Assembly: GCA_964527285.1 (NCBI GenBank)
Contig: CAZGNQ010000105.1
Span: forward strand, 1 to 10,836
Source: an uncultured Hyphomicrobiales bacterium
GTDB lineage: Bacteria > Pseudomonadota > Alphaproteobacteria > Rhizobiales > CAZGNQ01
Reading direction: 5' to 3'
DNA length: 10,836 bases
Shown: positions 2,468 through 10,383 of the stretch, one piece after another
Position numbering within the stretch: position 1 is the stretch's first letter
How the letters are laid out: every line of letters begins with the position of its first letter
Made by a program: the position numbers and the translations under genes
The notes under the pieces: generated by a model
What the model was told of the DNA's origin: nothing
What the model saw: only the letters and a program-made list of their open reading frames with translations
Databases searched by the model: none

Positions 2468-3223
2468 TTGACCGAGGCTTGCAACACTCTTGCCCGCCTG
2501 CCCTTCACCGCATGGGCACCGGCCATGCCGGCTCAGCGACCATATCCGCGTGCCGACCTTCCAGCACTGCGGACCCTGCCGCAACGGTTGCCTGCGCGCA
2601 CCGCCACTGCGCCGGGTCAGATCACGCGTGTGAACGTGGAGACCCTCAAGCCGACACAGATGACGGTCGGCATGCGGTCTGTCGTGCGCAAGCGGATGAA
2701 ATTCGAAAGTCGGGCCTCGTCGCGCAAACGGATGGAGAAGACGCTGGCCGCTCGGCCAATTCCGGCCGTGCAGGGCCCCGCCAATGAGCTGTTCCTCATC
2801 GACAATCACCACTTCGGCCTCGCGCTTTGGCAGGCGCAGGTGAAAGAGGCCTACGTGCGGATCGTCGACGACAAATCGCACCTCGCGCCGCATGAATTCT
2901 GGCGAGCGATGGAAGCGGAGGGCTGTCTGCATCCCTTTGACGAGCACGGCGCGCGCATTCCGCCAGAGCTTCTCCCGTTTTGCCTGCAGGCCATGCGTCA
3001 CGACCCCTACCGGGATCTGGCCTGGGAAGTGCGTGAGGCGGGGGGGTATCGTAAGATGCCGATCCCCTATGCCGAGTTCCGCTGGGCTGGCTATTTCCGG
3101 CGTCATCTGCCCCTGGCACGCGTGCTGAAAGATCACCAAGGGGCCGTTCAGTCAGCCCTGGCATTGTGTCACCGCCCTGAAGCCCGCCACCTGCCCGGCT
3201 ACGTGAACGCGCCGGCTGCATGA
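2468..3223 (+). CDS. ParB-like nuclease domain protein (ParBc_2 / PF08857-like, 'putative ParB-like nuclease'), ~251 aa from TTG 2468; function unknown
   Basis: It carries the L(K/R)PTQ-MTVGM motif, followed by ...IDNHHFGLAL..., AEF(R)WA...FRR and a C-terminal HLPGY, which I recall as characteristic of the ParBc_2 family. The start is TTG with GGGAG 9 nt upstream, and ATG 2525 (in frame) is an alternative. The antisense ORF 2435-3139 lacks any signature and was rejected. Confidence 0.55.
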   Translation: MTEACNTLARLPFTAWAPAMPAQRPYPRADLPALRTLPQRLPARTATAPGQITRVNVETLKPTQMTVGMRSVVRKRMKFESRASSRKRMEKTLAARPIPAVQGPANELFLIDNHHFGLALWQAQVKEAYVRIVDDKSHLAPHEFWRAMEAEGCLHPFDEHGARIPPELLPFCLQAMRHDPYRDLAWEVREAGGYRKMPIPYAEFRWAGYFRRHLPLARVLKDHQGAVQSALALCHRPEARHLPGYVNAPAA

Positions 3224-3457: not shown

Positions 3458-4549
3458 ATGTCAGTATCCACACTCACAGATCGGCCGTCGTCACCTGGTC
3501 AGGGAACACCTGAGCAGCCCTCATCGCGCGCCATCACGCCGACGCTGGACACGCCGCCAGCGGGCTTCCTGTCGACGAGCCGCGTGCTTGAGGCGTTTCG
3601 CGCCGCGGGCGAAGACACCCGATTTCGGATCCTGATGCTGCTGCGTGAAGGCGAGCTGACCATCACGGACCTGTGCCGCATCCTTGGCCAGAGCCAGCCG
3701 CGGGTCAGCCGCCACATCAAGGTGCTGATCGATGCCGGGCTTGTGGAGCGCCAGCGCGAAGGCAACTGGGTTTTCCTGCACCTCGCCGCCAGCCCCGGTG
3801 TGATCGATGCTGTGCGGCCGGGCATGGACGCGGTCTCGCCCGTTGAGCCGCATCGCACGGCCGACCTGGAAGCCTTGGCGGACCTGCGCAATGAGCGTCA
3901 GGAGCGTGCCCAGGCGGTCTTCCGGTCACTTGCGGCGGACTGGAGCCGCGAGCGTGCACTCCATGTCGATGAGAGCCGGATCGAGGCGACGATCTGCCAA
4001 CTCGTGGGCCGTGCACCGATCCGCAGGCTGGTTGATCTGGGCACCGGCACCGCGCGCATTCTTGAACTGCTGGGGGATCGCGCCGCTTCCGGTCTCGGCA
4101 TCGATGCCAATGCCGACATGCTGAATTATGCGCGCTCTCGGTTGGCGCTCACCGGTGCGCGCCACCTTCGGGTGGCACGGGGGGATCTTTATCATCTGAG
4201 CGCGCACCGGGAGACAGCCGATCTGGTTGTCATGCACCAGGTGCTGCATTTTCTCTCCCATCCCGGGCCGGCCATTCGCAGTGCTGCGACTCTGCTTCGC
4301 CCCGGCGGGCGGCTGCTGATCGCGGATTTTGCTCCCCATACCCATGAGGTTTTGCGGGAGACGAACGGGCATGTGCGGCTGGGGTTTTCCGATGAGCAGA
4401 TGCTGCGCTGGTTCGCGGAGTTCGGGCTTGAACCGCTGGAGCGCAGGACGCTGGCGCCGGACGGTGCAGAGCCCGACAAGATACTGACGGTTGCCGTTTG
4501 GCTCGCAAAGCGTCCCGACGCGCCCGTTTCGACGCCTGAACCACATTGA
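3458..4549 (+). CDS. sahR: ArsR-family winged-HTH regulator fused to a SAM-dependent methyltransferase-fold domain (SahR-type SAH-responsive regulator of the methionine/SAM cycle), 363 aa, with a ~40-aa Pro/Ser/Thr-rich N-terminal extension
   Basis: It has an ArsR-type HTH (RFRILMLLREGELTITDLCRILGQSQPRVSRHIKVLIDAGLV) and methyltransferase motif I (VDLGTGTARILELL) in the C-terminal half. It lies directly upstream of metF, the arrangement conserved for SahR in alphaproteobacteria. A strong RBS (AAGGA-N8-ATG) is present. Confidence 0.75.
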   Translation: MSVSTLTDRPSSPGQGTPEQPSSRAITPTLDTPPAGFLSTSRVLEAFRAAGEDTRFRILMLLREGELTITDLCRILGQSQPRVSRHIKVLIDAGLVERQREGNWVFLHLAASPGVIDAVRPGMDAVSPVEPHRTADLEALADLRNERQERAQAVFRSLAADWSRERALHVDESRIEATICQLVGRAPIRRLVDLGTGTARILELLGDRAASGLGIDANADMLNYARSRLALTGARHLRVARGDLYHLSAHRETADLVVMHQVLHFLSHPGPAIRSAATLLRPGGRLLIADFAPHTHEVLRETNGHVRLGFSDEQMLRWFAEFGLEPLERRTLAPDGAEPDKILTVAVWLAKRPDAPVSTPEPH

Positions 4550-4601: not shown

Positions 4602-5606
4602 ATGAGCACGACCTATGATCGGCACGCCGGTGGCGAAGGGAGCGAAAACAAGGTGGCACGCACGAAGGCCGGCCGCCCTGCATTCTCGCTTGAGGTTTTC
4701 CCGCCGCGCTCGGTCGATGCTGAGCGGCAACTGAGCGAGACGCTCGCCAGCCTCATGCCGCTCGGGCCGCTCTTTGTCTCAGTCACATACGGTGCCGGCG
4801 GCGCCGATCGTGAACGCTCAACCGCCACGATCGCGCGGATCAAGCGCATGGCCGGCGTCGTACCGGCCGCGCATCTCACGTGCGCAGGCCAGTCGCGCCA
4901 GCAGGTGCTGCGGGCGCTGCAGGTGTTCGCGAGCCAGGGTGTCCGACACATTGTTGCGCTGCGCGGTGATGCGCCGGCCAATGGCGATGCTGTGAGTGGT
5001 GGCGATGAATCCGCCGACGTCAGCGCGGTGCAGGATTTCAACTCCGCGCTGGATCTGGTGCGCGTTGTCAAGGCTGCCGGCACATTCGAGATCTCCGTCG
5101 CGGCCTATCCCGAGCCCCACCCCAAGAGCGAAAGTGCGGAGGCGTGCCTTGATGCTCTCGTGGCAAAGTTCGATGCCGGTGCTGACCGGGCGATCACGCA
5201 ATTCTTTTTCAACAGCGCCGATTTTCTCCGTCTGCGCGACGCGCTTGCCGCGCGCGGCATCGACAAGCCGCTTGTGCCGGGGATCCTGCCGATACATGAC
5301 ATCGGTCAGGTGCGCCGTTTTGCGCGCCGTTGCGGTGCCCGCGTGCCGTCATGGCTGAGCGAGAGTTTCGACCGCCTGAAGGACGATGCCGATATGGCCC
5401 GGCTCTTTGCGCTGTCGTTCACGGTCGATCAGGTCGACGAGCTTGCCCGCGAAGGCGTCGACCACGTCCATCTCTACACGCTCAACCGGCACGAGCTGGT
5501 CCGCCCGATCCTGGAGCTGTCGGCCCGTGGTCTGGAAGGCCGTGACCTGCGCAATGACAAGGTCGCAGGCGATGTGCTGGCCTTGCGTGAGCGCGCGGCC
5601 GGCTGA
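4602..5606 (+). CDS. metF: 5,10-methylenetetrahydrofolate reductase MetF, 334 aa
   Basis: It shows MetF family features (FSLEVFPPRS near the N-terminus, a TIM-barrel FAD-binding pattern, AAYPEPHP). A GAGGAG SD lies 7 nt before ATG 4602. It is likely co-transcribed with the upstream regulator across a 52-nt gap. Confidence 0.9.
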   Translation: MSTTYDRHAGGEGSENKVARTKAGRPAFSLEVFPPRSVDAERQLSETLASLMPLGPLFVSVTYGAGGADRERSTATIARIKRMAGVVPAAHLTCAGQSRQQVLRALQVFASQGVRHIVALRGDAPANGDAVSGGDESADVSAVQDFNSALDLVRVVKAAGTFEISVAAYPEPHPKSESAEACLDALVAKFDAGADRAITQFFFNSADFLRLRDALAARGIDKPLVPGILPIHDIGQVRRFARRCGARVPSWLSESFDRLKDDADMARLFALSFTVDQVDELAREGVDHVHLYTLNRHELVRPILELSARGLEGRDLRNDKVAGDVLALRERAAG

Positions 5607-5776: not shown

Positions 5777-6973
5777 TCAACGCCGTGGCCCATTGCTACC
5801 GCCTGCGCCAGAGTTTCCGCCCCCATCATCGTCCCCCAGGCGATAAAGCCCACGCATCAGTGCCTGCAACGCCCCGCTCGTGCCATCGCCAGCGTGGAGA
5901 TCAATGTTGCCAACCTTCTCCACCAGCTTCTCAAGCGCTTCAAGTTCCTTGAGCCGAAGCAGCAGCGGATTATCCTCCATCAGCTTGGACGTGTTGAGCA
6001 GCGACCGCGTCGCCGCCGTCTCCTCCTGGCGCCGGATGAGATTGGCTTTGGCCGTGCGCTCAGCCTCGACAACCTTGTTCAGCAACTCCCGCACGTCGCC
6101 CGGCAGGATGATGTCCTTCACGCCGATCTCACCGATTGACGCACCAAGGTCTTCGGCACGAGCGCTCACATAATCGCGCACCTGCTGATCGAGCGTATCG
6201 CGTGCGGCCAAGATCTCATCCAGCGTACGGGCGGCCACCGCCTCCCTGATCGCAAACTGAATGAGCCGGTAGAGCGTCGTCGGCACGTCCTGGCTGGCGA
6301 TTGCGGCTTGCCTCACATCCTCGATCTTGAAGAACGCCGTCAGCGTCACGCGGATGCCCACGCGGTCCTTCGTGAGGATCTCCTGCGCTGTCACCTCCAG
6401 CGGGATCGGGCGCATATCCATTTTCTGGATGCGCACCGTGCGTCCCACCGCCCAGTAGGCATGATGACCAGCGGGCAGGATTTCAGCCAATGCGCCATCA
6501 ACGAACAGAAGGCCCGCCTCGTGGGCCTCAACGACACTGTGCACCACCGTATGCGACGATGAGAGATCAAGCCGGGCGAGGTGTTCCGGCGCCACCACCA
6601 TGGTTTCGCGGGTGTTGATCCGTTCGACGCTCACATCGGCCAGCGTTGTCCAGAACGCGCGAATGGCGTTGGGGGGAACGAAATGACGAGCCTGGCCGTC
6701 GATCGACACCAGCGCCACGGTTTCAGAGTCGGTCTGAACGATTTCCAGATGGTCGCGTGCAACATCGGGTTGCGTGCGCGCCAACAGCAGCGCCGTGTCG
6801 GCCGGCAGCGTCGAGCGCATCACGTTGAACACTTCGCAGGTGTACTCCCGGCGTGGATCGAAACGCACAAACCGGCCTGGAGCAAGAAACTGGGCAAAGC
6901 GCCCATCGCGGCGCAGTACGCCACGTTCGTCATCCCTGATGGTGACGCGAAAGAATCCAAGACGGTGCATCAT
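5777..6973 (-). CDS. SPFH/band-7 (stomatin/prohibitin/flotillin-like, slipin-type) domain protein, ~398 aa, with an N-terminal partial duplication of the SPFH beta-segment, a Gly-rich C-terminal tail and no obvious TM helix
   Basis: The SPFH core is AGLLFVDG...YWAVGRTVRIQKMDMRPIPLEVTAQEILTKDRVGIRVTLTAFFKIEDV, followed by a coiled-coil-like region (LIRRQEETAATRSLLNTSKLMEDNPLLLRLKELEALEKL). The preferred start is the ATGATG at 6973/6970, preceded by GGGAGGGG. The ORF-track GTG at 7009 has no SD. Confidence 0.75.
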   Translation of the reverse strand: MMHRLGFFRVTIRDDERGVLRRDGRFAQFLAPGRFVRFDPRREYTCEVFNVMRSTLPADTALLLARTQPDVARDHLEIVQTDSETVALVSIDGQARHFVPPNAIRAFWTTLADVSVERINTRETMVVAPEHLARLDLSSSHTVVHSVVEAHEAGLLFVDGALAEILPAGHHAYWAVGRTVRIQKMDMRPIPLEVTAQEILTKDRVGIRVTLTAFFKIEDVRQAAIASQDVPTTLYRLIQFAIREAVAARTLDEILAARDTLDQQVRDYVSARAEDLGASIGEIGVKDIILPGDVRELLNKVVEAERTAKANLIRRQEETAATRSLLNTSKLMEDNPLLLRLKELEALEKLVEKVGNIDLHAGDGTSGALQALMRGLYRLGDDDGGGNSGAGGSNGPRR

Positions 6974-7426
6974 CCCCTCCCGATCGGCCGTCGGCCGTCG
7001 TTGCGGCACGCGAACAAACTAAGCCACAAGCCTTGCCGCTTGATTGCCGGGCGCCCTGCGAGCGGTGCATCAGTGGAACATTGAGACGCGACGGCGGTGG
7101 CGCGCTGGGCTCGTTGGTGGTTGCCGGGGCGTGGCCGATGGTTTGCCGGATCGCTTCCCCCGCCGTCGAACGGGACGGCGCTTGAGCCCGGGGCGCGGCG
7201 GACCTGCACCGGGGTGCGCCTGCCCCAGGGGACCGCCCGAAAGCGCCCGCCCGAGGGCATCGGTGCCCGGGTTCACTCTGCCCGCCACAGGCGGTATCCG
7301 CACCGGCGCAGGGCCCGGCAGCGGGTGGCGCAACCGGCAAGGCCGAAGCCAAACCCGTCACCCCTGGAAACGATCCGGCGCCCCTTCGTCCGGAAAGCGC
7401 TTTTCAGGCGCGGCACGATCTCAAAT

Positions 7427-7498
7427 CGTGTGAGGTTGGAATCGAACCAACAACAGACACCTTAACAGGGTGTTGCTCTACCTTTGAGCTACTCCAAG
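7427..7498 (-). pseudogene. tRNA-Asn(GUU)-like sequence with an intact D-arm, anticodon arm (ACACC-CTGTTAA-GGTGT) and T-arm (GTTGG-TTCGATT-CCAAC), but a non-pairing acceptor stem (5' CTTGGAG vs 3' CTCACAC); probable tRNA pseudogene or tRNA-derived remnant
   Basis: I folded it by hand on the minus strand: D-arm TA-GCTC-AAAGGTA-GAGC and anticodon GTT. Only 4 of 7 acceptor pairs are possible. Its 5' end abuts the neighbouring tRNA-like gene with a 1-nt gap. Confidence 0.45.
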
Positions 7499-7499
7499 G

Positions 7500-7572
7500 A
7501 GGGCCGAGCAGGTATCGAACCTGCGACCTCCCGCCCAAAAGGGCGGGCGCTCTGCCACTGAGCTATCGGTCC
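7500..7572 (-). tRNA. tRNA-like gene with a canonical D-arm (TAGCTCAGTGGCAGAGC), T-arm (GCAGG-TTCGATA-CCTGC) and a 7-bp acceptor with one A3:C70 mismatch, but an 18-nt anticodon arm (CCCGC-CCTTTTGG-GCGGG; alternatively a 7-bp stem CCCGCCC/GGGCGGG closed by TTTT); identity unassignable; no encoded CCA
   Basis: I folded it by hand on the minus strand. Every element fits a tRNA except the anticodon arm, which is 1 nt longer than canonical (an 8-nt loop or a 4-nt loop). The T-arm and variable loop (AGGTC) resemble Lys/Pro/Ala-type tRNAs. Confidence 0.5.
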
Positions 7573-7769
7573 ATGCGCGCAAACGCGGAACACCAGGACG
7601 GCATGGCCGCCGGCGCCAGGCGGGTCTCAGCGAGCCCGTCCCCATGGCAATCTACACGCAGGCGTCGAGTGTAAGGGCCAGGGGTGAATGCAGCGTGAAA
7701 TCCGCCAGAGGATGCGCCGTTCCCGGCGGGAGCGCGTTGCGCGTCGAGGCGCAATGCGGAAAGGCAGGC

Positions 7770-8939
7770 ATGGAGAGCGAAGCGGAACAAGAGCCGGTTG
7801 CCGACGCACTGGACATTTTTCTCGCCGCGCTACCAGGCCTGGAGGACGTTCTGGCCGCGGAGGCGCGCGCGCTCGGCTTCGATGACGTGTCACCAACCGC
7901 GGGCGGTGTCACGCTGCGAGGCGACTGGGCTGGCGTGTGGCGGGCCAATCTCAGCCTGCGCTGTGCGACGCGGGTGCTCGTGCGGGTGGGCCGCTTCCGT
8001 GTTGTACACCTGGCCCAACTTGACAAGCGGGCGCGGGCGCTCCCGTGGTCTTTTTTCCTCCGTTCGGACGTGCCGGTTCGCGTCGATGCAACGACCCGGC
8101 GCTCACGCATCTACCATGCAGGCGCTGCGACGGAGCGTGTGGCCACGGCGATCACGGCAAGCGTCGGCTGCGAGATCCGGCCTGCTGCGCCGGTGAAGAT
8201 CCTGGTGCGCGTGGAGGATAACATCTGCACCGTCAGCGTTGACACATCCGGCGAGCTTTTGTTCCGCCGCGGCTTCAAGCAGGCGGTCGGCAAGGCGCCC
8301 TTGCGTGAGACCATGGCCGCAGCCTTCCTGCGCGCCTGCGCCCACACGGACGCAGAACCCGTGGTCGATCCCATGTGCGGCTCTGGCACGATTGTCATCG
8401 AGGCAGCGGAAATGGCGGCAGGGCTGTTGCCGGGCCGCGCGCGCGGGTTCGCGTTTGAGCACCTTGCAGGATTTGAGCATCAGGCCTGGGAGAGCCTGCG
8501 TCACGCGGAGGATGAAAAATCGCGAGCGACCGCACACGGTGGGGACCCAATCGCTTTCGGTTCCGACCGTGATGCTGGGGCCGTCGCCATGGCCTTTGCG
8601 AACGCTGAGCGGGCGGGCGTGACGGCACTGACAGACTTTGCCCACCTGCCCGTCAAGGATCTGACGCCACCATCATTGCCCAACGGGTCGACCGATGGCG
8701 GCCTTGTGCTCGTCAACCCGCCTTACGGGGCACGCATTGGCGAAGTCAGCGCGCTGTCCGGGCTCTATCACACTCTTGGCAAGGTGATGCTTGAACGTTT
8801 CGCCGGCTGGCGGGTCGGCCTCATCACCAGTGAGCCGCGTCTGGCGCGTGCCACCCGGTTGCCCTTCGGCCCGCCCGGCCCGCCCGTGCCCCACGGCCCC
8901 CTGCGCGTCCGCCTCTATCAGACGGAGCGACTGGGGTGA
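7770..8939 (+). CDS. THUMP-domain class I SAM-dependent RNA methyltransferase (COG0116, RlmL/m2G-type N-methyltransferase), ~389 aa
   Basis: Motif I is VDPMCGSGTIVIEAA and motif IV is the NPPYG tetrad (LVLVNPPYGARIG). An N-terminal THUMP-like region is present. The start ATG 7770 is preferred over the ORF-track 7644 because GAAAGG lies 7 nt upstream and the protein length matches the family. Confidence 0.75.
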   Translation: MESEAEQEPVADALDIFLAALPGLEDVLAAEARALGFDDVSPTAGGVTLRGDWAGVWRANLSLRCATRVLVRVGRFRVVHLAQLDKRARALPWSFFLRSDVPVRVDATTRRSRIYHAGAATERVATAITASVGCEIRPAAPVKILVRVEDNICTVSVDTSGELLFRRGFKQAVGKAPLRETMAAAFLRACAHTDAEPVVDPMCGSGTIVIEAAEMAAGLLPGRARGFAFEHLAGFEHQAWESLRHAEDEKSRATAHGGDPIAFGSDRDAGAVAMAFANAERAGVTALTDFAHLPVKDLTPPSLPNGSTDGGLVLVNPPYGARIGEVSALSGLYHTLGKVMLERFAGWRVGLITSEPRLARATRLPFGPPGPPVPHGPLRVRLYQTERLG

Positions 8940-8954
8940 AAAAGTGTGCGGCCC

Positions 8955-8964
8955 GGATGCATCC
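8955..8964. promoter_or_regulatory. Perfect 10-bp palindrome GGATGCATCC in the 86-bp region upstream of the DUF2703-like/ECF operon, with CGTC 15 nt downstream (8980-8983); candidate operator or ECF-type promoter element
   Basis: Seen directly in the sequence. A strong AGGAGG SD lies at 9014-9019. Confidence 0.25.
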
Positions 8965-9025
8965 TTTCGCCCACCGCGACGTCAAGGGTGAGGCAAGCAG
9001 GCAGGAAGGACCAGGAGGGACCGCC

Positions 9026-9766
9026 GTGAACACACCGACCGCAAAGACGCCAACGACGAGCGTCAACATCGCCAATGCAGGCCAACACCAACCGGAGGCC
9101 GGGATCGGCACCGCCACACGGGCGGTGGACGCAGCGGACAACAGGGCGGTGTTGGAAATTGATTATCTTTATCTCGACCTTGCTCAATGCACGCGGTGCC
9201 AACGCACGCGCGAGGTCTTGCACCGCGCCGTTGAGGCTTGCCGCCCTGCGCTCGACGCCCTCGGATTGTCCGCCGTGGTGCGCGAGACACACGTGACGTC
9301 GCGGGAGATGGCGCAGGCTCATGCGTTCCGTGTGTCGCCGACGATCCTGATCGACGGGCGCGATGTGCAACCTGAAGCGTCTCACGATCTTTGCGCGGAA
9401 TGCGGGGATCTGTGCCAGTGCGCCGATGGGGTGGAGTGCCGTGTCTGGGTCTGGAACGGCGAGCGTCAACTCTGGCCGCACGCTGCGTTCTTGATCGACG
9501 CCATCGTCACCGCGGCGACGCGGCACCGCGCAGGGGGCAACGGTGATGATCAGGATACGTTGCCGCGTGCCACTGGAACCGGCCGGGAGGTCGTGGAGAA
9601 AAACCCTGGCGGCCCGGCCTTGCCTGCCGCGCCGGCTGAGCGGTACTTTCCCGCATCGTGCGCTCCAGGCGATGGGCCAGCACAGGGCGACGCCCGCGAC
9701 AACGCAACGCGCAGCGGACATGGCAGCGAAGCGAACGCCTGCTGCCCGCCGTCGTGCTGCCCATGA
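9026..9766 (+). CDS. DUF2703-like thioredoxin-fold protein with Cys clusters (CxRC, CAECGDLCQC, VECRVW) plus a disordered Pro/Gly-rich tail ending ACCPPSCCP; ~246 aa; putative metal-binding protein
   Basis: The core LEIDYLYLDLAQCTRCQRT...SPTILIDGRDV...CAECGDLCQCADGVECRVWVWNG matches my recollection of the DUF2703 (PF10865) pattern. GTG 9026 is preceded by AGGAGG-N6, which is far better than the GTG 8936 or ATG 8957 starts. The stop overlaps the next gene's ATG (ATGA at 9763-9766). Confidence 0.6.
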   Translation: MNTPTAKTPTTSVNIANAGQHQPEAGIGTATRAVDAADNRAVLEIDYLYLDLAQCTRCQRTREVLHRAVEACRPALDALGLSAVVRETHVTSREMAQAHAFRVSPTILIDGRDVQPEASHDLCAECGDLCQCADGVECRVWVWNGERQLWPHAAFLIDAIVTAATRHRAGGNGDDQDTLPRATGTGREVVEKNPGGPALPAAPAERYFPASCAPGDGPAQGDARDNATRSGHGSEANACCPPSCCP

Positions 9767-10383
9767 GGCGGGGGCCTGACGATCCATGTCCGCAGGGACG
9801 TGATGACGTGCCCATCACACCGGCGCGGTGGGGCGTTGCTGTGCTGCGCGCGCGCCGGGCCATCATGGCGAGCGGCGTGGCGCCGGCTGACGTTGATGAC
9901 GTCTTGCACGCTGGCGTTGAAAAAGCGCTGCGCGCGCTGCCTGGCTTGCGCGACCACACGCGCTTTGAAGCCTGGGTGGCGCGCATCGCAACGCGGTGTG
10001 CCATCGATCATCTGCGTGCAGCCGGCCGCGCGCAGGCCCGTCTCAGCGATCATGATGTCGAAGCCCTCGCGCACGAGGACAGTCTCACCGAGCGTTCCGA
10101 CGCATCTGGCCTGACGTCCTACAGCCCGTGCGTGGCGCCCTTCCTGGCACGCCTCGCGGCGCCAGACGCTGAGGTCCTGCGCTTGAAGGACGTTGAAGGG
10201 CGGCCGTCCGTTCAGGTGGCGGCACTGCTGGGCATCTCACTGCCGGCCGCAAAGTCGCGCATTCTGCGGGCGCGGCGTCGGCTTGCGCGGGCGCTTGTGG
10301 CCTGCTGCGGTGAGCTGGCAGAGCGTCCCATCGCCTCGCGCGCGGTTGAAGACTGTGGGCCGCGTTGCTGCCTCAACGATTGA
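9763..10383 (+). CDS. ECF (group IV) RNA polymerase sigma factor with a Cys-rich C-terminal extension (..ACCGELAERPIASRAVEDCGPRCCLND), ~206 aa; CorE-like (ECF44-type) metal-sensing candidate
   Basis: Sigma-2 region: DVLHAGVEKALRALPGLRDHTRFEAWVARIATRCAIDHLR. Sigma-4 region: VLRLKDVEGRPSVQVAALLGISLPAAKSRILRARRRLARAL. There are 5 Cys in the last 30 aa. The start ATG 9763 overlaps the upstream stop (ATGA). No anti-sigma gene follows; a convergent gene does. Confidence 0.85.
   Translation: MRRGPDDPCPQGRDDVPITPARWGVAVLRARRAIMASGVAPADVDDVLHAGVEKALRALPGLRDHTRFEAWVARIATRCAIDHLRAAGRAQARLSDHDVEALAHEDSLTERSDASGLTSYSPCVAPFLARLAAPDAEVLRLKDVEGRPSVQVAALLGISLPAAKSRILRARRRLARALVACCGELAERPIASRAVEDCGPRCCLND

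Follow-up and report, generated by a model that had tools for sequence, protein, structure and literature searches.

What kind of RNA is specified by a tRNA-like gene whose anticodon arm is one nucleotide too long? The question is raised by a contig of 10,836 nucleotides, termed the window below, from the metagenome-assembled genome (MAG) of an uncultured Hyphomicrobiales bacterium. The initial annotation placed a tRNA-like feature at positions 7500-7572, with an 18-nt anticodon arm and an A3:C70 mismatch in the acceptor stem, and left several readings side by side, from a +1 frameshift suppressor to a closed stem that cannot decode. We have analyzed this element, its relatives and the gene that lies beyond it.

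Module A is a tRNA-shaped element with a capped anticodon arm

Both Rfam and ARAGORN recognize the tRNA-like feature, which reads on the minus strand from 7572 to 7500. The full tRNA model of Rfam (RF00005, positions 1-71) matches 7572..7500 with 53.9 bits (E = 1.5e-09, gathering score 29). ARAGORN places a 'tRNA-???' at 7498-7572, also on the minus strand, and assigns it an anticodon of two bases, which indicates a non-canonical loop. We call this element module A. Its sequence, 5' to 3', is GGACCGA-UA-GCUC-AGUGGCA-GAGC-G-CCCGC-CCUUUUGG-GCGGG-AGGUC-GCAGG-UUCGAUA-CCUGC-UCGGCCC-U, and direct reading confirms both the 18-nt arm and the A3:C70 mismatch. The acceptor stem forms six of its seven pairs. 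The discriminator U73 is followed by CCU instead of CCA, so the 3' end is N73-CC and then U, which the CCA-adding enzyme could complete.

The arm could be drawn with an 8-nt loop CCUUUUGG, having C at position 33, on a 5-bp stem; it does not have the 7-nt loop of a canonical tRNA, in which position 33 is U and position 37 a purine. In both the minimum free energy (MFE) and the centroid structures calculated with ViennaRNA the arm is a stem of 7 bp capped by a UUUU tetraloop. Module A has an MFE of -38.6 kcal/mol (z = -3.3), and none of 200 shuffled sequences was equally stable.

Alignment A1 comprises nine loci, including the window, in which the RNA is 57-76% identical and the flanking genes differ. 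All nine come from MAGs or metagenomes, and the other eight were found by way of the slipin gene described below, so that linkage to slipin is conditioned on that gene. The loops of module A in the nine loci are CCUUUUGG, GCAA, GAUA, GCAA, CAAUCAGA, CAUGGA, GCGA, ACAUCU and AUGC. They are thus 4, 6 or 8 nt in length, and 7 nt in none; those of the eight homologous loci have 4, 4, 4, 4, 4, 6, 6 and 8 nt, and their sequences are unrelated. Given such differences in length and sequence there is no anticodon to conserve, and since no locus has a 7-nt anticodon loop module A cannot decode. The closed-stem reading of a tRNA-shaped RNA unable to decode is therefore the one supported, the element being a module of a larger conserved RNA.

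The acceptor, anticodon and T stems of module A covary in the alignment, and the window copy forms 20 of the 21 family pairs. The 3:70 pair is G·U at six loci, A-U at one (L058), U·G at one (L053) and A·C in the window. The base that follows the CC is A in seven of the nine loci, and U in the window.

A second tRNA-like module follows in tandem

The initial annotation overlooked a neighbor. A second tRNA-like element, module B, starts 3 nt downstream (7497..7429, minus strand), and it appears to abut or overlap the CCA of module A. Positions 5-66 of RF00005 align to 7494..7432 with 53.5 bits. The anticodon arm of module B has 5 bp and a 7-nt loop, CUGUUAA. Its acceptor stem is weak in the window, with four of six pairs formed, and over the whole module 18 of the 20 family pairs form. 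All five pairs of the anticodon stem covary. A37 is present in all nine loci and U33 in seven of them, and the triplet is variable. No triplet that covaries with the 'anticodon' of module B, as in a T-box-like specifier or a kissing loop, was found within the RNA. ARAGORN and Rfam return the tandem pair at the homologous loci also, as 'tRNA-???' followed by a low-GC tRNA-like element.

The modules are embedded in a conserved RNA of about 500 nt

Comparison of the loci shows that module A is part of a conserved structured RNA, spanning 7643..7141 on the minus strand of the window and 455-510 nt in the family. The order is the same in all nine loci: a 5' domain of two hairpins, module A, N73-CC, module B, a linker and a 3' domain, followed by the slipin gene. 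The features are listed in Table 1.

Table 1. Positions of the RNA elements and of the downstream gene in the window
Feature	Position	Strand	Basis and properties
Probable promoter region of the RNA	7644..7700	minus	-35/-10-like conservation with other loci; boundaries approximate and inferred
P1 hairpin of 5' domain, GGGCUC-GCU-GAG-A-CCCG	7619..7641	minus	A1 columns 3-25
P2/P2a of 5' domain, CUGGCGC...GUGUUCC plus inner hairpin	7589..7617	minus	A1 columns 27-55
tRNA-like module A	7501..7572	minus	Class I tRNA-like acceptor, D, T and variable regions; anticodon arm a capped hairpin
18-nt 'anticodon' arm of module A, CCCGCCC-UUUU-GGGCGGG	7530..7547	minus	Sequence reading and fold
Discriminator U73 and invariant CC	7498..7500	minus	CC columns unvarying in A1
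tRNA-like module B	7429..7497	minus	D, anticodon and T arms; RF00005 53.5 bits
Variable linker; small hairpin CACGAU-UUGAG-AUCGUG in the window	7384..7428	minus	Sequence, fold and A1
3' domain, ~240 nt	7141..7383	minus	A1 columns 287-550
Slipin-family (SPFH/Band_7) gene, 397 aa	5777..6970	minus	Pfam Band_7, E = 2.5e-27

In the 5' domain, 98.8% of the cells of P1 are paired, with one compensatory change (C-G to U-A) in the family. P2/P2a is 100% paired with invariant G·U pairs, and its inner hairpin covaries as CCGC/GCGG, CCAC/GUGG and CGGC/GCCG. The 3' domain is closed by a long-range helix, GGnnGCCGG.../...CCGGCnnCC, within which lie a short branch and a rod that is long and irregular. A conserved internal loop of this rod, GCGGAUACCGC, is at 7301..7291 in the window. 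Upstream of the RNA, a palindromic box is present in six of the nine loci and is not recognizable in the window, where a simple scan returned no sigma-70 site.

The consensus calculated from A1 with RNAalifold contains 130 pairs in 22 helices, and many of the compensatory pairs lie in helices 12-22, which make up the 3' domain. Double (compensatory) changes occur in 69 pairs, compared with 26 in shuffled alignments and 18-27 when the partners were slid. Paired cells amount to 93.2%, compared with 81.0% in shuffles (none of 500 reached the observed value) and ~42% on sliding. Variability across the region has no 3-base periodicity and the indels are not multiples of three. The region is therefore not coding, and a 143-aa open reading frame at 6930..7361 looks spurious.

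Does the window copy belong to this family? A profile built for nhmmer with the window left out matches 7638..7143 over positions 6-497 of 499 (E = 1.5e-40), while ordinary tRNAs match positions ~70-220 only, with at most 52 bits. The covariance model R1, also built without the window, scores 103.7 bits at 7643..7498 (E = 3e-23), compared with 113-154 bits for the other members of the family and at most 64 bits for ordinary tRNAs. Within the R1 match the 5' domain of the window (P1 and P2, 7641..7589) forms 19 of its 20 pairs. In the 3' domain 54 of 69 pairs form. With its A3·C70, its CCU and the 4/6 acceptor pairs of module B, this is the most divergent member. It nonetheless has P1 and P2, a capped arm whose loop is not 7 nt, N73-CC, module B, the GCGGAUACCGC domain and the downstream slipin gene. 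From the alignment and the two models, the window element is almost certainly a non-decoding member of the conserved slipin-linked RNA.

The RNA of ~500 nt was apparently uncatalogued. Rfam 15 holds no such family. A literature search found nothing that links tRNA-like RNAs to slipin, SPFH proteins or Hyphomicrobium, and these terms are absent from the main text of the ncRNA-discovery papers examined. A pattern scan of genomes for 18-nt arms with central TTTT returned no alphaproteobacterial homologue, only an unrelated Bacteroidota family and att-site fragments. A metagenome scan with a pattern independent of the arm gave three ordinary tRNA-Asn genes, and neither a pattern scan of viral contigs nor a BLAST search of plasmids with the RNA gave anything relevant.

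The RNA lies upstream of a slipin-family gene

In the window 170 nt separate the RNA from the start of the slipin gene. Across the loci the RNA lies 20-250 nt upstream of the start codon, always on the same strand, and it is found upstream of slipin in all eight other loci retrieved with DNA (alphaproteobacterial genomes). The eight homologues (P0128, P0163, P0125, P0124, P0231, P0214, P0221 and P0216) are 62-68% identical to the window protein (full alignment A2), and in Hyphomicrobium and Hyphomicrobiaceae such proteins carry the name 'slipin family protein'. Each is preceded by a gene-free stretch of ~640-1,600 nt that bears the RNA, with outer neighbors that differ. The closest match to the window protein is 70% identical.

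On reading its sequence, the slipin protein is found to have no hydrophobic N-terminal anchor segment, and it carries a beta-rich N-terminal extension of 145 aa. An exhaustive search found the extension in 312 protein clusters. A homologue search by word index, with the first 148 aa as the query, gave no match, which looks like a limit of the tool for a short query. No convincing structural match to the extension was obtained, and none to a known RNA-binding fold. A role of the protein in anti-phage defense was considered and rejected, as PADLOC returned no match.

No consistent terminator is present between the RNA and the slipin gene across the loci. At locus L054 a terminator-like hairpin followed by UUUUU overlaps the 3' end of the RNA and uses the closing helix's 3' strand, a hint that in some lineages the RNA is separate or subject to attenuation. 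At L050 a U6 run directly follows the closing helix. The divergently adjacent gene encodes an RlmL/Trm14-like methyltransferase, with best homologues 61-62% identical. No tRNA-like element was found at the loci of those homologues, so this neighbor is incidental.

A possible processing pathway and the origin of module A

Module A probably descends from tRNA-Ala, because it has the frame GAGCGCC...GGAGGUC at the anticodon arm, an acceptor stem like that of tRNA-Ala, and G3·U70 in six of nine loci. The sole match of module A from locus L052 against E. coli by BLAST is a tRNA-Ala gene. Judged from its sequence, module A appears to retain features by which enzymes handle tRNA, namely the elbow, a 7-bp acceptor stem, a 3:70 pair that is not Watson-Crick, and N73-CC(A).

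We propose the following pathway. The RNA would be co-transcribed with the slipin gene, and RNase P would cleave at the 5' ends of modules A and B. Cleavage at module B would generate the ...CC(A) 3' end of module A, much as in the mascRNA of MALAT1. Module A would then be freed as a CCA-ended tRNA mimic of ~75 nt, which in most lineages might be charged by alanyl-tRNA synthetase (AlaRS) and yet be unusable by the ribosome. Module B and the 3' domain would remain on the slipin transcript. Taken as a whole, release of module A from the slipin-linked RNA as a tRNA mimic is on balance the explanation that we think probable. For co-transcription with processing of the RNase P type, judged on its own, we would put the chances as about even.

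Alanylation is possible in the family, if doubtful, and still less to be expected of the window copy. G3·U70 is the alanine identity pair, and it is absent from the window copy, which has A3·C70. As the G·U pair is not universal, and most loci have U as the discriminator where tRNA-Ala has A73, alanylation cannot be the function common to all members. A pure processing model does not explain why the 5' and 3' domains are so strongly conserved in sequence.

Several features of this RNA are unusual. Two complete tRNA cloverleaves stand in tandem within it. One of them has lost the ability to decode but retains features that are read by RNase P and by the CCA-adding enzyme, and probably by AlaRS. 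The RNA is also tied to a single scaffold gene of the SPFH family, whose members are not known to work with RNA. Large structured bacterial RNAs of unknown role are rare, and each solved case has revealed new biochemistry. If the RNA is processed or charged, it would provide a natural system for tRNA mimicry outside translation and for the role of anchor-less SPFH proteins. A bolder possibility, which we hold to be improbable, is a new ribonucleoprotein system of bacteria, in which an oligomeric scaffold of the SPFH type, the anchor-less slipin, works with this RNA as its dedicated partner. The module derived from tRNA-Ala would be processed by RNase P, completed by the CCA-adding enzyme and alanylated, yet kept from the ribosome. 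That would make it the second charged non-decoding tRNA mimic in bacteria, after tmRNA.

Alternative explanations

The RNA might instead act intact, as the dedicated partner of the slipin-family protein in a ribonucleoprotein, with the tRNA-like modules as structural elbows or docking surfaces; the Y RNA-Ro60, OLE-OapA and omega RNA-IscB gene pairs would be parallels. Its constant place beside one non-enzymatic, oligomer-forming protein while the outer neighbors change fits such a partnership. So do the 5' domain and the GCGGAUACCGC loop, which are kept in sequence and not only in pairing, and a slipin that lacks the anchor and carries an extension found in 312 protein clusters. However, that N-terminal module matches no known RNA-binding fold, and an invariant N73-CC next to an abutting second module suggests the formation of an end over docking. 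We regard this alternative as rather unlikely. A cis-regulatory leader of the slipin mRNA (a riboswitch, attenuator or T-box-like element), sensing a ligand, a tRNA-handling enzyme or the charging state, would account for the constant strand and the short distance to the start codon, and the hairpin with UUUUU at L054 and the U6 run at L050 could be taken as its terminators. Yet the spacer and Shine-Dalgarno region are unconserved and lie outside the conserved structure, and a terminator-like element is present in just one or two of the nine loci. With 500 nt and 22 helices the RNA is also far larger than known leaders, and the downstream gene encodes a scaffold protein, not a metabolic enzyme or transporter. 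A leader seems to us quite improbable.

The remaining readings take module A as a tRNA, working or broken. A functional tRNA whose 8-nt anticodon loop reads codons of four bases, the +1 frameshift suppressor of the initial annotation, is suggested by the 18-nt arm, in which a 5-bp stem leaves eight loop bases, and true 8-nt loops (CUUUUUAA) do occur elsewhere, in Lys-like tRNAs at L012 and L035. In module A, however, the ends of the loop, CC and GG, are complementary and fold shut into the 7-bp stem in both predicted structures, and position 33 is C rather than U. No single-base deletion yields a canonical loop; the parental 7-nt loop is found in none of the eight relatives, whose loops share no common sequence. 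In addition the acceptor stem is mismatched, CCA is not encoded, and a larger conserved RNA surrounds the element. We give this reading practically no credence. A decaying pair of tRNA pseudogenes, a relic or target of integration, or a sequencing or assembly indel is hardly better placed, and we consider it very improbable. The contig is from a MAG, is only 10.8 kb long and has no close relative (best matches 62% for the RlmL-like protein and 70% for slipin), and A3:C70, the absent A of CCA and the weak acceptor of module B do look degenerate. But both modules covary in every arm over nine loci, which contradicts decay, and the window copy forms all but one of the 21 pairs of A and all but two of the 20 of B. 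Integration is contradicted by the window, which has no integrase, no direct repeat and no second copy of the 3' part of a tRNA. If a base had been gained by error, relatives would be expected to have the canonical arm of 17 nt, and none with such an arm was found; the arms of the relatives are non-canonical and of several lengths. Since this is usual in the family, an indel need not be assumed. Calls of 'tRNA-???', pseudo or otherwise odd that tRNA finders make on modules of this kind should be taken neither for frameshift suppressors nor for sequencing errors.

Comparison with known RNAs

A close parallel to the proposed tRNA mimic is tmRNA (SsrA), likewise a non-decoding mimic derived from tRNA-Ala within a larger structured RNA. 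The two share a T arm, an acceptor with G3·U70 (in six of nine slipin-linked members) and a CCA end. The tRNA-like domain of tmRNA is assembled from both ends of the RNA, lacks an anticodon arm and has only a reduced D arm; tmRNA also has a tag reading frame and pseudoknots. Module A, by contrast, is a contiguous full cloverleaf with a capped anticodon stem, followed by module B and without a reading frame. The discriminator is A in tmRNA and mostly U in the slipin-linked RNA. Neither ARAGORN nor Rfam, even at E <= 5, finds tmRNA in the window.

For module B and the A/B junction the working analogy is with the mascRNA and MEN-beta elements of MALAT1 and NEAT1, where a tRNA shape is the RNase P site that sets the upstream 3' end, and the released, non-decoding piece gains CCA. 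These elements differ in being eukaryotic, single, placed at the 3' end of a lncRNA and unrelated in sequence, and for the slipin-linked RNA we infer the processing. The bacterial Y RNA-like YrlA (RF02553) also has a tRNA-like module, with T and D arms, and is encoded beside its protein partner. It has one module, in which a Ro-binding stem replaces the anticodon arm. RF02553 gives a partial match in the window that spans the A/B junction, below threshold at 24.8 bits (gathering score 69), and no Ro60/Rsr (TROVE) gene is present among the ten largest open reading frames of the window.

An arm one nucleotide too long is shared with the 8-nt-loop suppressors (sufD, sufA6/SufB2 and sufJ) and with yeast mitochondrial tRNA-Thr(UAG). 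In the suf suppressor tRNAs the loop is open, with U33 present and a purine on the 3' side of the anticodon; each is a canonical tRNA with one insertion. The same description holds for yeast mitochondrial tRNA-Thr(UAG) (PMC3113583). Module A differs from both in that the ends of its loop pair and in that the loops of its homologues range from 4 to 8 nt. The 3' tRNA-like structures of viruses (TYMV-Val, BMV-Tyr and TMV-His) resemble it as aminoacylatable, CCA-ended, non-decoding mimics within a larger RNA, but they are 3'-terminal, have a pseudoknotted acceptor and other amino-acid identities, and show no homology in sequence or structure. In size (~500 nt), number of covarying helices, narrow range and unknown function the RNA is of the class of OLE, ROOL, GOLLD and raiA, and OLE too is linked to particular partner proteins. 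None of these has two complete tRNA cloverleaves or linkage to slipin, and none is matched in Rfam searches.

A separate group of tRNA-Lys paralogues in Bacteroidota, for which we know of no name, has an 18-nt arm that forms 7 bp and UUUU, with covariation of the extra pairs. They have a tRNA-Lys body and their own terminator, and stand alone beside tRNA-Lys(UUU), with neither 5' and 3' domains nor slipin. These closed-arm paralogues are convergent with module A, and not homologous to it.

The tRNA-like element has a closed anticodon arm

The window, a whole MAG contig of 10,836 nt, has a G+C content of ~65%. The tRNA-like element (module A) lies at the position given in the initial annotation, on the minus strand. 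Direct reading of the sequence bears out its textbook D, variable and T regions, and both the 18-nt anticodon arm and the A3:C70 mismatch, the only one in the acceptor stem, are present. After the discriminator, U, comes CCU. The ARAGORN and Rfam RF00005 checks that had been proposed gave an undefined tRNA and a full-length match respectively. The arm, CCCGCCC-UUUU-GGGCGGG, folds into seven base pairs capped by a UUUU tetraloop in the minimum-energy and centroid structures alike (−38.6 kcal/mol, z = −3.3). No one-base deletion within it creates a canonical loop; the nearest product, CUUUUGG, would place G37 after U36 and join C32 to G38 in a Watson-Crick pair. The arm is not explained by a simple indel error.

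Coordinates of the features described, in the window unless another locus is named (L-numbers denote DNA loci from other genomes)
Feature	Position	Strand	Remarks
~500-nt RNA	7643..7141	−	
Match to RNA profile HMM	7638..7143	−	profile positions 6-497 of 499; E = 1.5e-40
Match to covariance model	7643..7498	−	103.7 bits; E = 3e-23
Module A, Rfam tRNA model	7572..7500	−	full length; 53.9 bits; E = 1.5e-09; threshold 29
ARAGORN "tRNA-???"	7498-7572	−	anticodon of two bases
Module B	7497..7429	−	
Module B, Rfam tRNA model	7494..7432	−	model positions 5-66; 53.5 bits
Spacer, RNA to slipin start	6971-7140		170 nt; very GC-rich
ORF across spacer	6930-7361	−	143 aa
Slipin gene	6970..5777	−	SPFH/Band_7 protein, 397 aa
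RlmL/Trm14-like ORF	7644-8939	+	431 aa annotated
Probable divergent promoter region	7644-~7800		
DUF2703 / 'DF family (seleno)protein'-like ORF	8936-9766	+	
Sigma-70 (ECF-type) ORF	9658-10383	+	
ArsR-type HTH fused to SAM-dependent methyltransferase	3458-4549	+	
metF (MTHFR)	4602-5606	+	
L054 hairpin	2929-2948		GGCGACC-CGUUGC-GGUUGCC, then UUUUU
tRNA-Lys-like gene, L033	59-133		
tRNA-Lys-like gene, L037	2016-2090		
Open-loop Lys-like tRNA, L012	3430-3504		Puia sp. P3 chromosome
Open-loop Lys-like tRNA, L035	1618-1691		Saccharibacteria MAG

The element is linked to a slipin gene

Neither a pattern scan across genomes for 18-nt arms with central TTTT nor an arm-independent one across metagenomes found homologues of the element. 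No homologue of the divergently adjacent methyltransferase exceeds 62% identity, and there is no synteny at the loci of its homologues. Downstream of the element on the same strand is a slipin gene, whose homologues align fully with 62-68% identity, some of them annotated as "slipin family protein" in MAGs of Hyphomicrobium and Hyphomicrobiaceae. Nine homologues were looked up, and eight gave DNA; upstream of slipin in all eight lie ~640-1,600 nt with called genes of at most 64 aa (two small calls in locus L058). In these stretches ARAGORN and Rfam find a tandem pair, a "tRNA-???" whose anticodon loop is abnormal and then, directly after it, a low-GC tRNA-like element called as Lys, Gly, Arg, Val or Asn depending on the locus. 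The outer neighbours vary, and the RNA is linked to slipin in every locus examined.

The spacer to slipin is ~20-100 nt in most other loci. The ORF across it in the window is rich in Ala, Pro, Gly and Arg with no family match, and so is likely to be spurious. Locus L053 encodes a 456-aa slipin variant with two RNB-domain (RNase II/R family) genes downstream; an ADP-ribosylglycohydrolase gene lies upstream of this variant there and at the locus of protein P0207. The slipin N-terminal beta module has no Pfam model. It recurs as 7-8 tandem repeats in the much larger proteins P0257 (894 aa), P0293 (2656 aa) and P0319 (787 aa), and is thus a mobile repeat domain.

A conserved structured RNA of ~500 nt

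Alignment of the upstream regions shows that conservation reaches beyond both tRNA-like elements, over 455-510 nt that begin with a GUGUCCGGGCUC hairpin and end, shortly ahead of the slipin gene, with a CCGGCGACC motif; slipin starts 20-250 nt 3′ of the RNA. All the family sequences are metagenome-derived. The nine are only 57-76% identical, with the window copy an outlier at 57-62%. The structure predicted by RNAalifold has 22 helices and 130 base pairs, of which 69 show compensatory double changes, compared with 26 on shuffling and 18-27 when the partners are slid by 1-3 columns. Likewise 93.2% of cells are paired, compared with 81.0% on shuffling (0/500 shuffles reach the observed value) and ~42% on sliding. 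Variability has no three-base periodicity across the aligned region, which is therefore not coding. The order is fixed: P1 hairpin, P2/P2a, linker, module A, N73-CC, module B, variable linker and a 3′ domain of ~240 nt, closed by a long-range helix and containing an invariant internal loop GCGGAUACCGC. The evidence for the family and for its structure is solid.

A profile HMM of the eight non-window sequences matches the window copy along almost the whole profile; in ~400 kb of other loci it matched ordinary tRNAs by its tRNA part alone, with at most 52 bits. A covariance model of the 5′ domain and module A, also built without the window, scores the other members at 113-154 bits and ordinary tRNAs at no more than 64. 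Of the predicted pairs, those that form in the window are 19/20 in the 5′ domain, 20/21 in module A, 18/20 in module B and 54/69 in the 3′ domain. The window copy is a full member of the family. The tRNA-like feature is only the most conspicuous part of a longer conserved RNA that apparently has not been described before.

A palindromic box AATTYCGCCGRAATT lies 42-51 nt upstream of P1 in L049, L050, L052, L058, L059 and L060 (e.g. AATTCCGCCGGAATT in L050), overlapping the promoter-like region of the RNA in these 6/9 loci; it is unrecognisable in the window. It is probably the binding site of a regulator.

Modules A and B

In 8/9 loci module A retains the D stem and the D-loop GG. It also has a UUCGAUU-type T loop, a variable loop of 5 nt and a 7-bp acceptor stem, and all stems covary. 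The "anticodon" loops are CCUUUUGG, GCAA, GAUA, GCAA, CAAUCAGA, CAUGGA, GCGA, ACAUCU and AUGC. Their lengths are 4, 6 or 8 nt but never 7, and they have no sequence in common. This loop is a cap rather than an anticodon loop, and module A cannot decode. Of the possibilities raised initially, a tRNA-shaped RNA that cannot decode is thus the one upheld. A +1 frameshift suppressor with an 8-nt loop conflicts with the closed arm and the variable loops of the family, and a pseudogene with the covariation and the membership of the window copy. The loops of the relatives also argue against sequencing error; the canonical 17-nt arm that might have been found at homologous loci occurs in none. Neither an integrase nor a repeat of a tRNA segment was found in the window, contrary to an integration target.

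At 3:70, six loci have G·U, one has U·G, one has A-U and the window has A·C, so that the pair is non-Watson-Crick in 8/9. G3·U70 is the major identity element for AlaRS. The frame GAGCGCC...GGAGGUC around the module A arm and the acceptor stem GAGGCUA/UAGCUUC of L052 are very similar to E. coli tRNA-Ala; the sole BLAST match of L052 module A in E. coli is a tRNA-Ala gene, albeit weak (E = 0.1). Two C's 3′ of the discriminator are invariant, followed by A in 7/9 loci. The oddities of the window (18-nt arm, A3·C70, CCU) represent lineage variants at positions where the whole family departs from the canonical tRNA.

Module B, absent from the initial annotation, begins three bases downstream of module A in the window, and across the family at, or within 1-2 bases of, the module A CCA. 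In the window copy the D, anticodon (loop CUGUUAA) and T arms are perfect, the acceptor stem is weak and the G+C content is only 48%. The anticodon stem-loop of module B stays canonical (5 bp/7 nt) in the family, with covariation in 5/5 stem pairs, A37 in 9/9 loci and U33 in 7/9. The triplet is GUU in three loci and elsewhere UCU, UUU, UCC, CAC, AAU or AUG; no triplet covarying with it was found within the ~500-nt RNA. CCA follows module B in 4/9 loci.

Comparison with known RNAs

Rfam 15 returns only RF00005 at these loci, with chance-level extras in the window region at E ≤ 5, including a partial YrlA (24.8 bits, threshold 69). ARAGORN finds no tmRNA. A full-text search of partial coverage gave no literature tying tRNA-like RNAs to slipin, SPFH or Hyphomicrobium, and the main text of the recent bacterial ncRNA-discovery papers examined uses none of these terms. 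The tRNA-like domain of tmRNA (Ala-type and non-decoding), mascRNA-type processing elements, YrlA and viral tRNA-like structures are near in principle, but the RNA is a member of none. Given the lack of an Rfam family, literature record or membership, we regard it, from metagenome sequences and that partial coverage, as a new RNA class.

Possible function

We infer that module A keeps exactly those features read by RNase P, the CCA-adding enzyme and AlaRS. These, and the abutment of module B on CC(A), lead us to propose a scheme of processing and release. The RNA and slipin would be transcribed together, since no consistent terminator separates them across loci. RNase P would cut at the 5′ ends of both modules, the cut at module B creating the 3′ end of module A, as RNase P acts at mascRNA in MALAT1. 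Module A would be freed as a CCA-ended tRNA mimic, chargeable by AlaRS in most lineages and unusable by the ribosome.

Processing does not account for how strongly the 5′ and 3′ domains are conserved. For this reason the leading alternative is an RNA that remains intact and serves as the RNA partner of the slipin protein. The RNA might alternatively be a cis-regulatory leader. A terminator-like hairpin overlaps its 3′ end in L054 and there is a U-run in L050, but such signs are confined to these. The L054 hairpin shares the 3′ strand of the closing helix and is a possible alternative-pairing switch, clear in that locus only.

Other genes in the window

The housekeeping genes are hisZ, hisG, an ArsR-methyltransferase fusion directly 5′ of metF, metF, an RlmL/Trm14-like THUMP methyltransferase, a DUF2703 protein and a sigma factor. 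Homologues of the RlmL/Trm14-like protein, at ~370 aa, align to just 87% of it. Its true start is probably ~40-56 codons downstream of that annotated, which would leave a divergent promoter region common to this gene and the RNA. The DUF2703-like ORF runs ~100 nt into the start of the sigma-70 ORF; probably the start of one or the other is wrongly placed.

Unusual anticodon arms in unrelated tRNA-like genes

Bacteroidota tRNA-Lys-like genes, unrelated to module A, occur in L006, L008, L015, L019, L021, L022 and L028, and further in L029, L030, L033, L037, L041 and L043. Their 18-nt arm UCCCGAU-UUUU-AUCGGGA forms 7 bp and a UUUU loop, with pairs 6 and 7 covarying. A normal tRNA-Lys(UUU) gene is usually present 100-350 nt upstream of them, and they carry a terminator of their own. 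In some copies the 5′ half is missing, and these resemble att-site duplicates (L025/L026, L010/L040, L038); a GIY-YIG-like ORF follows the copy in L019, L021 and L025. The Lys-like tRNAs of L012 and L035 have a truly open 8-nt loop CUUUUUAA with ARAGORN anticodon 'tttt', the L012 copy scoring 64 bits in Rfam. They may read a quadruplet (AAAA) naturally or else reflect homopolymer errors.
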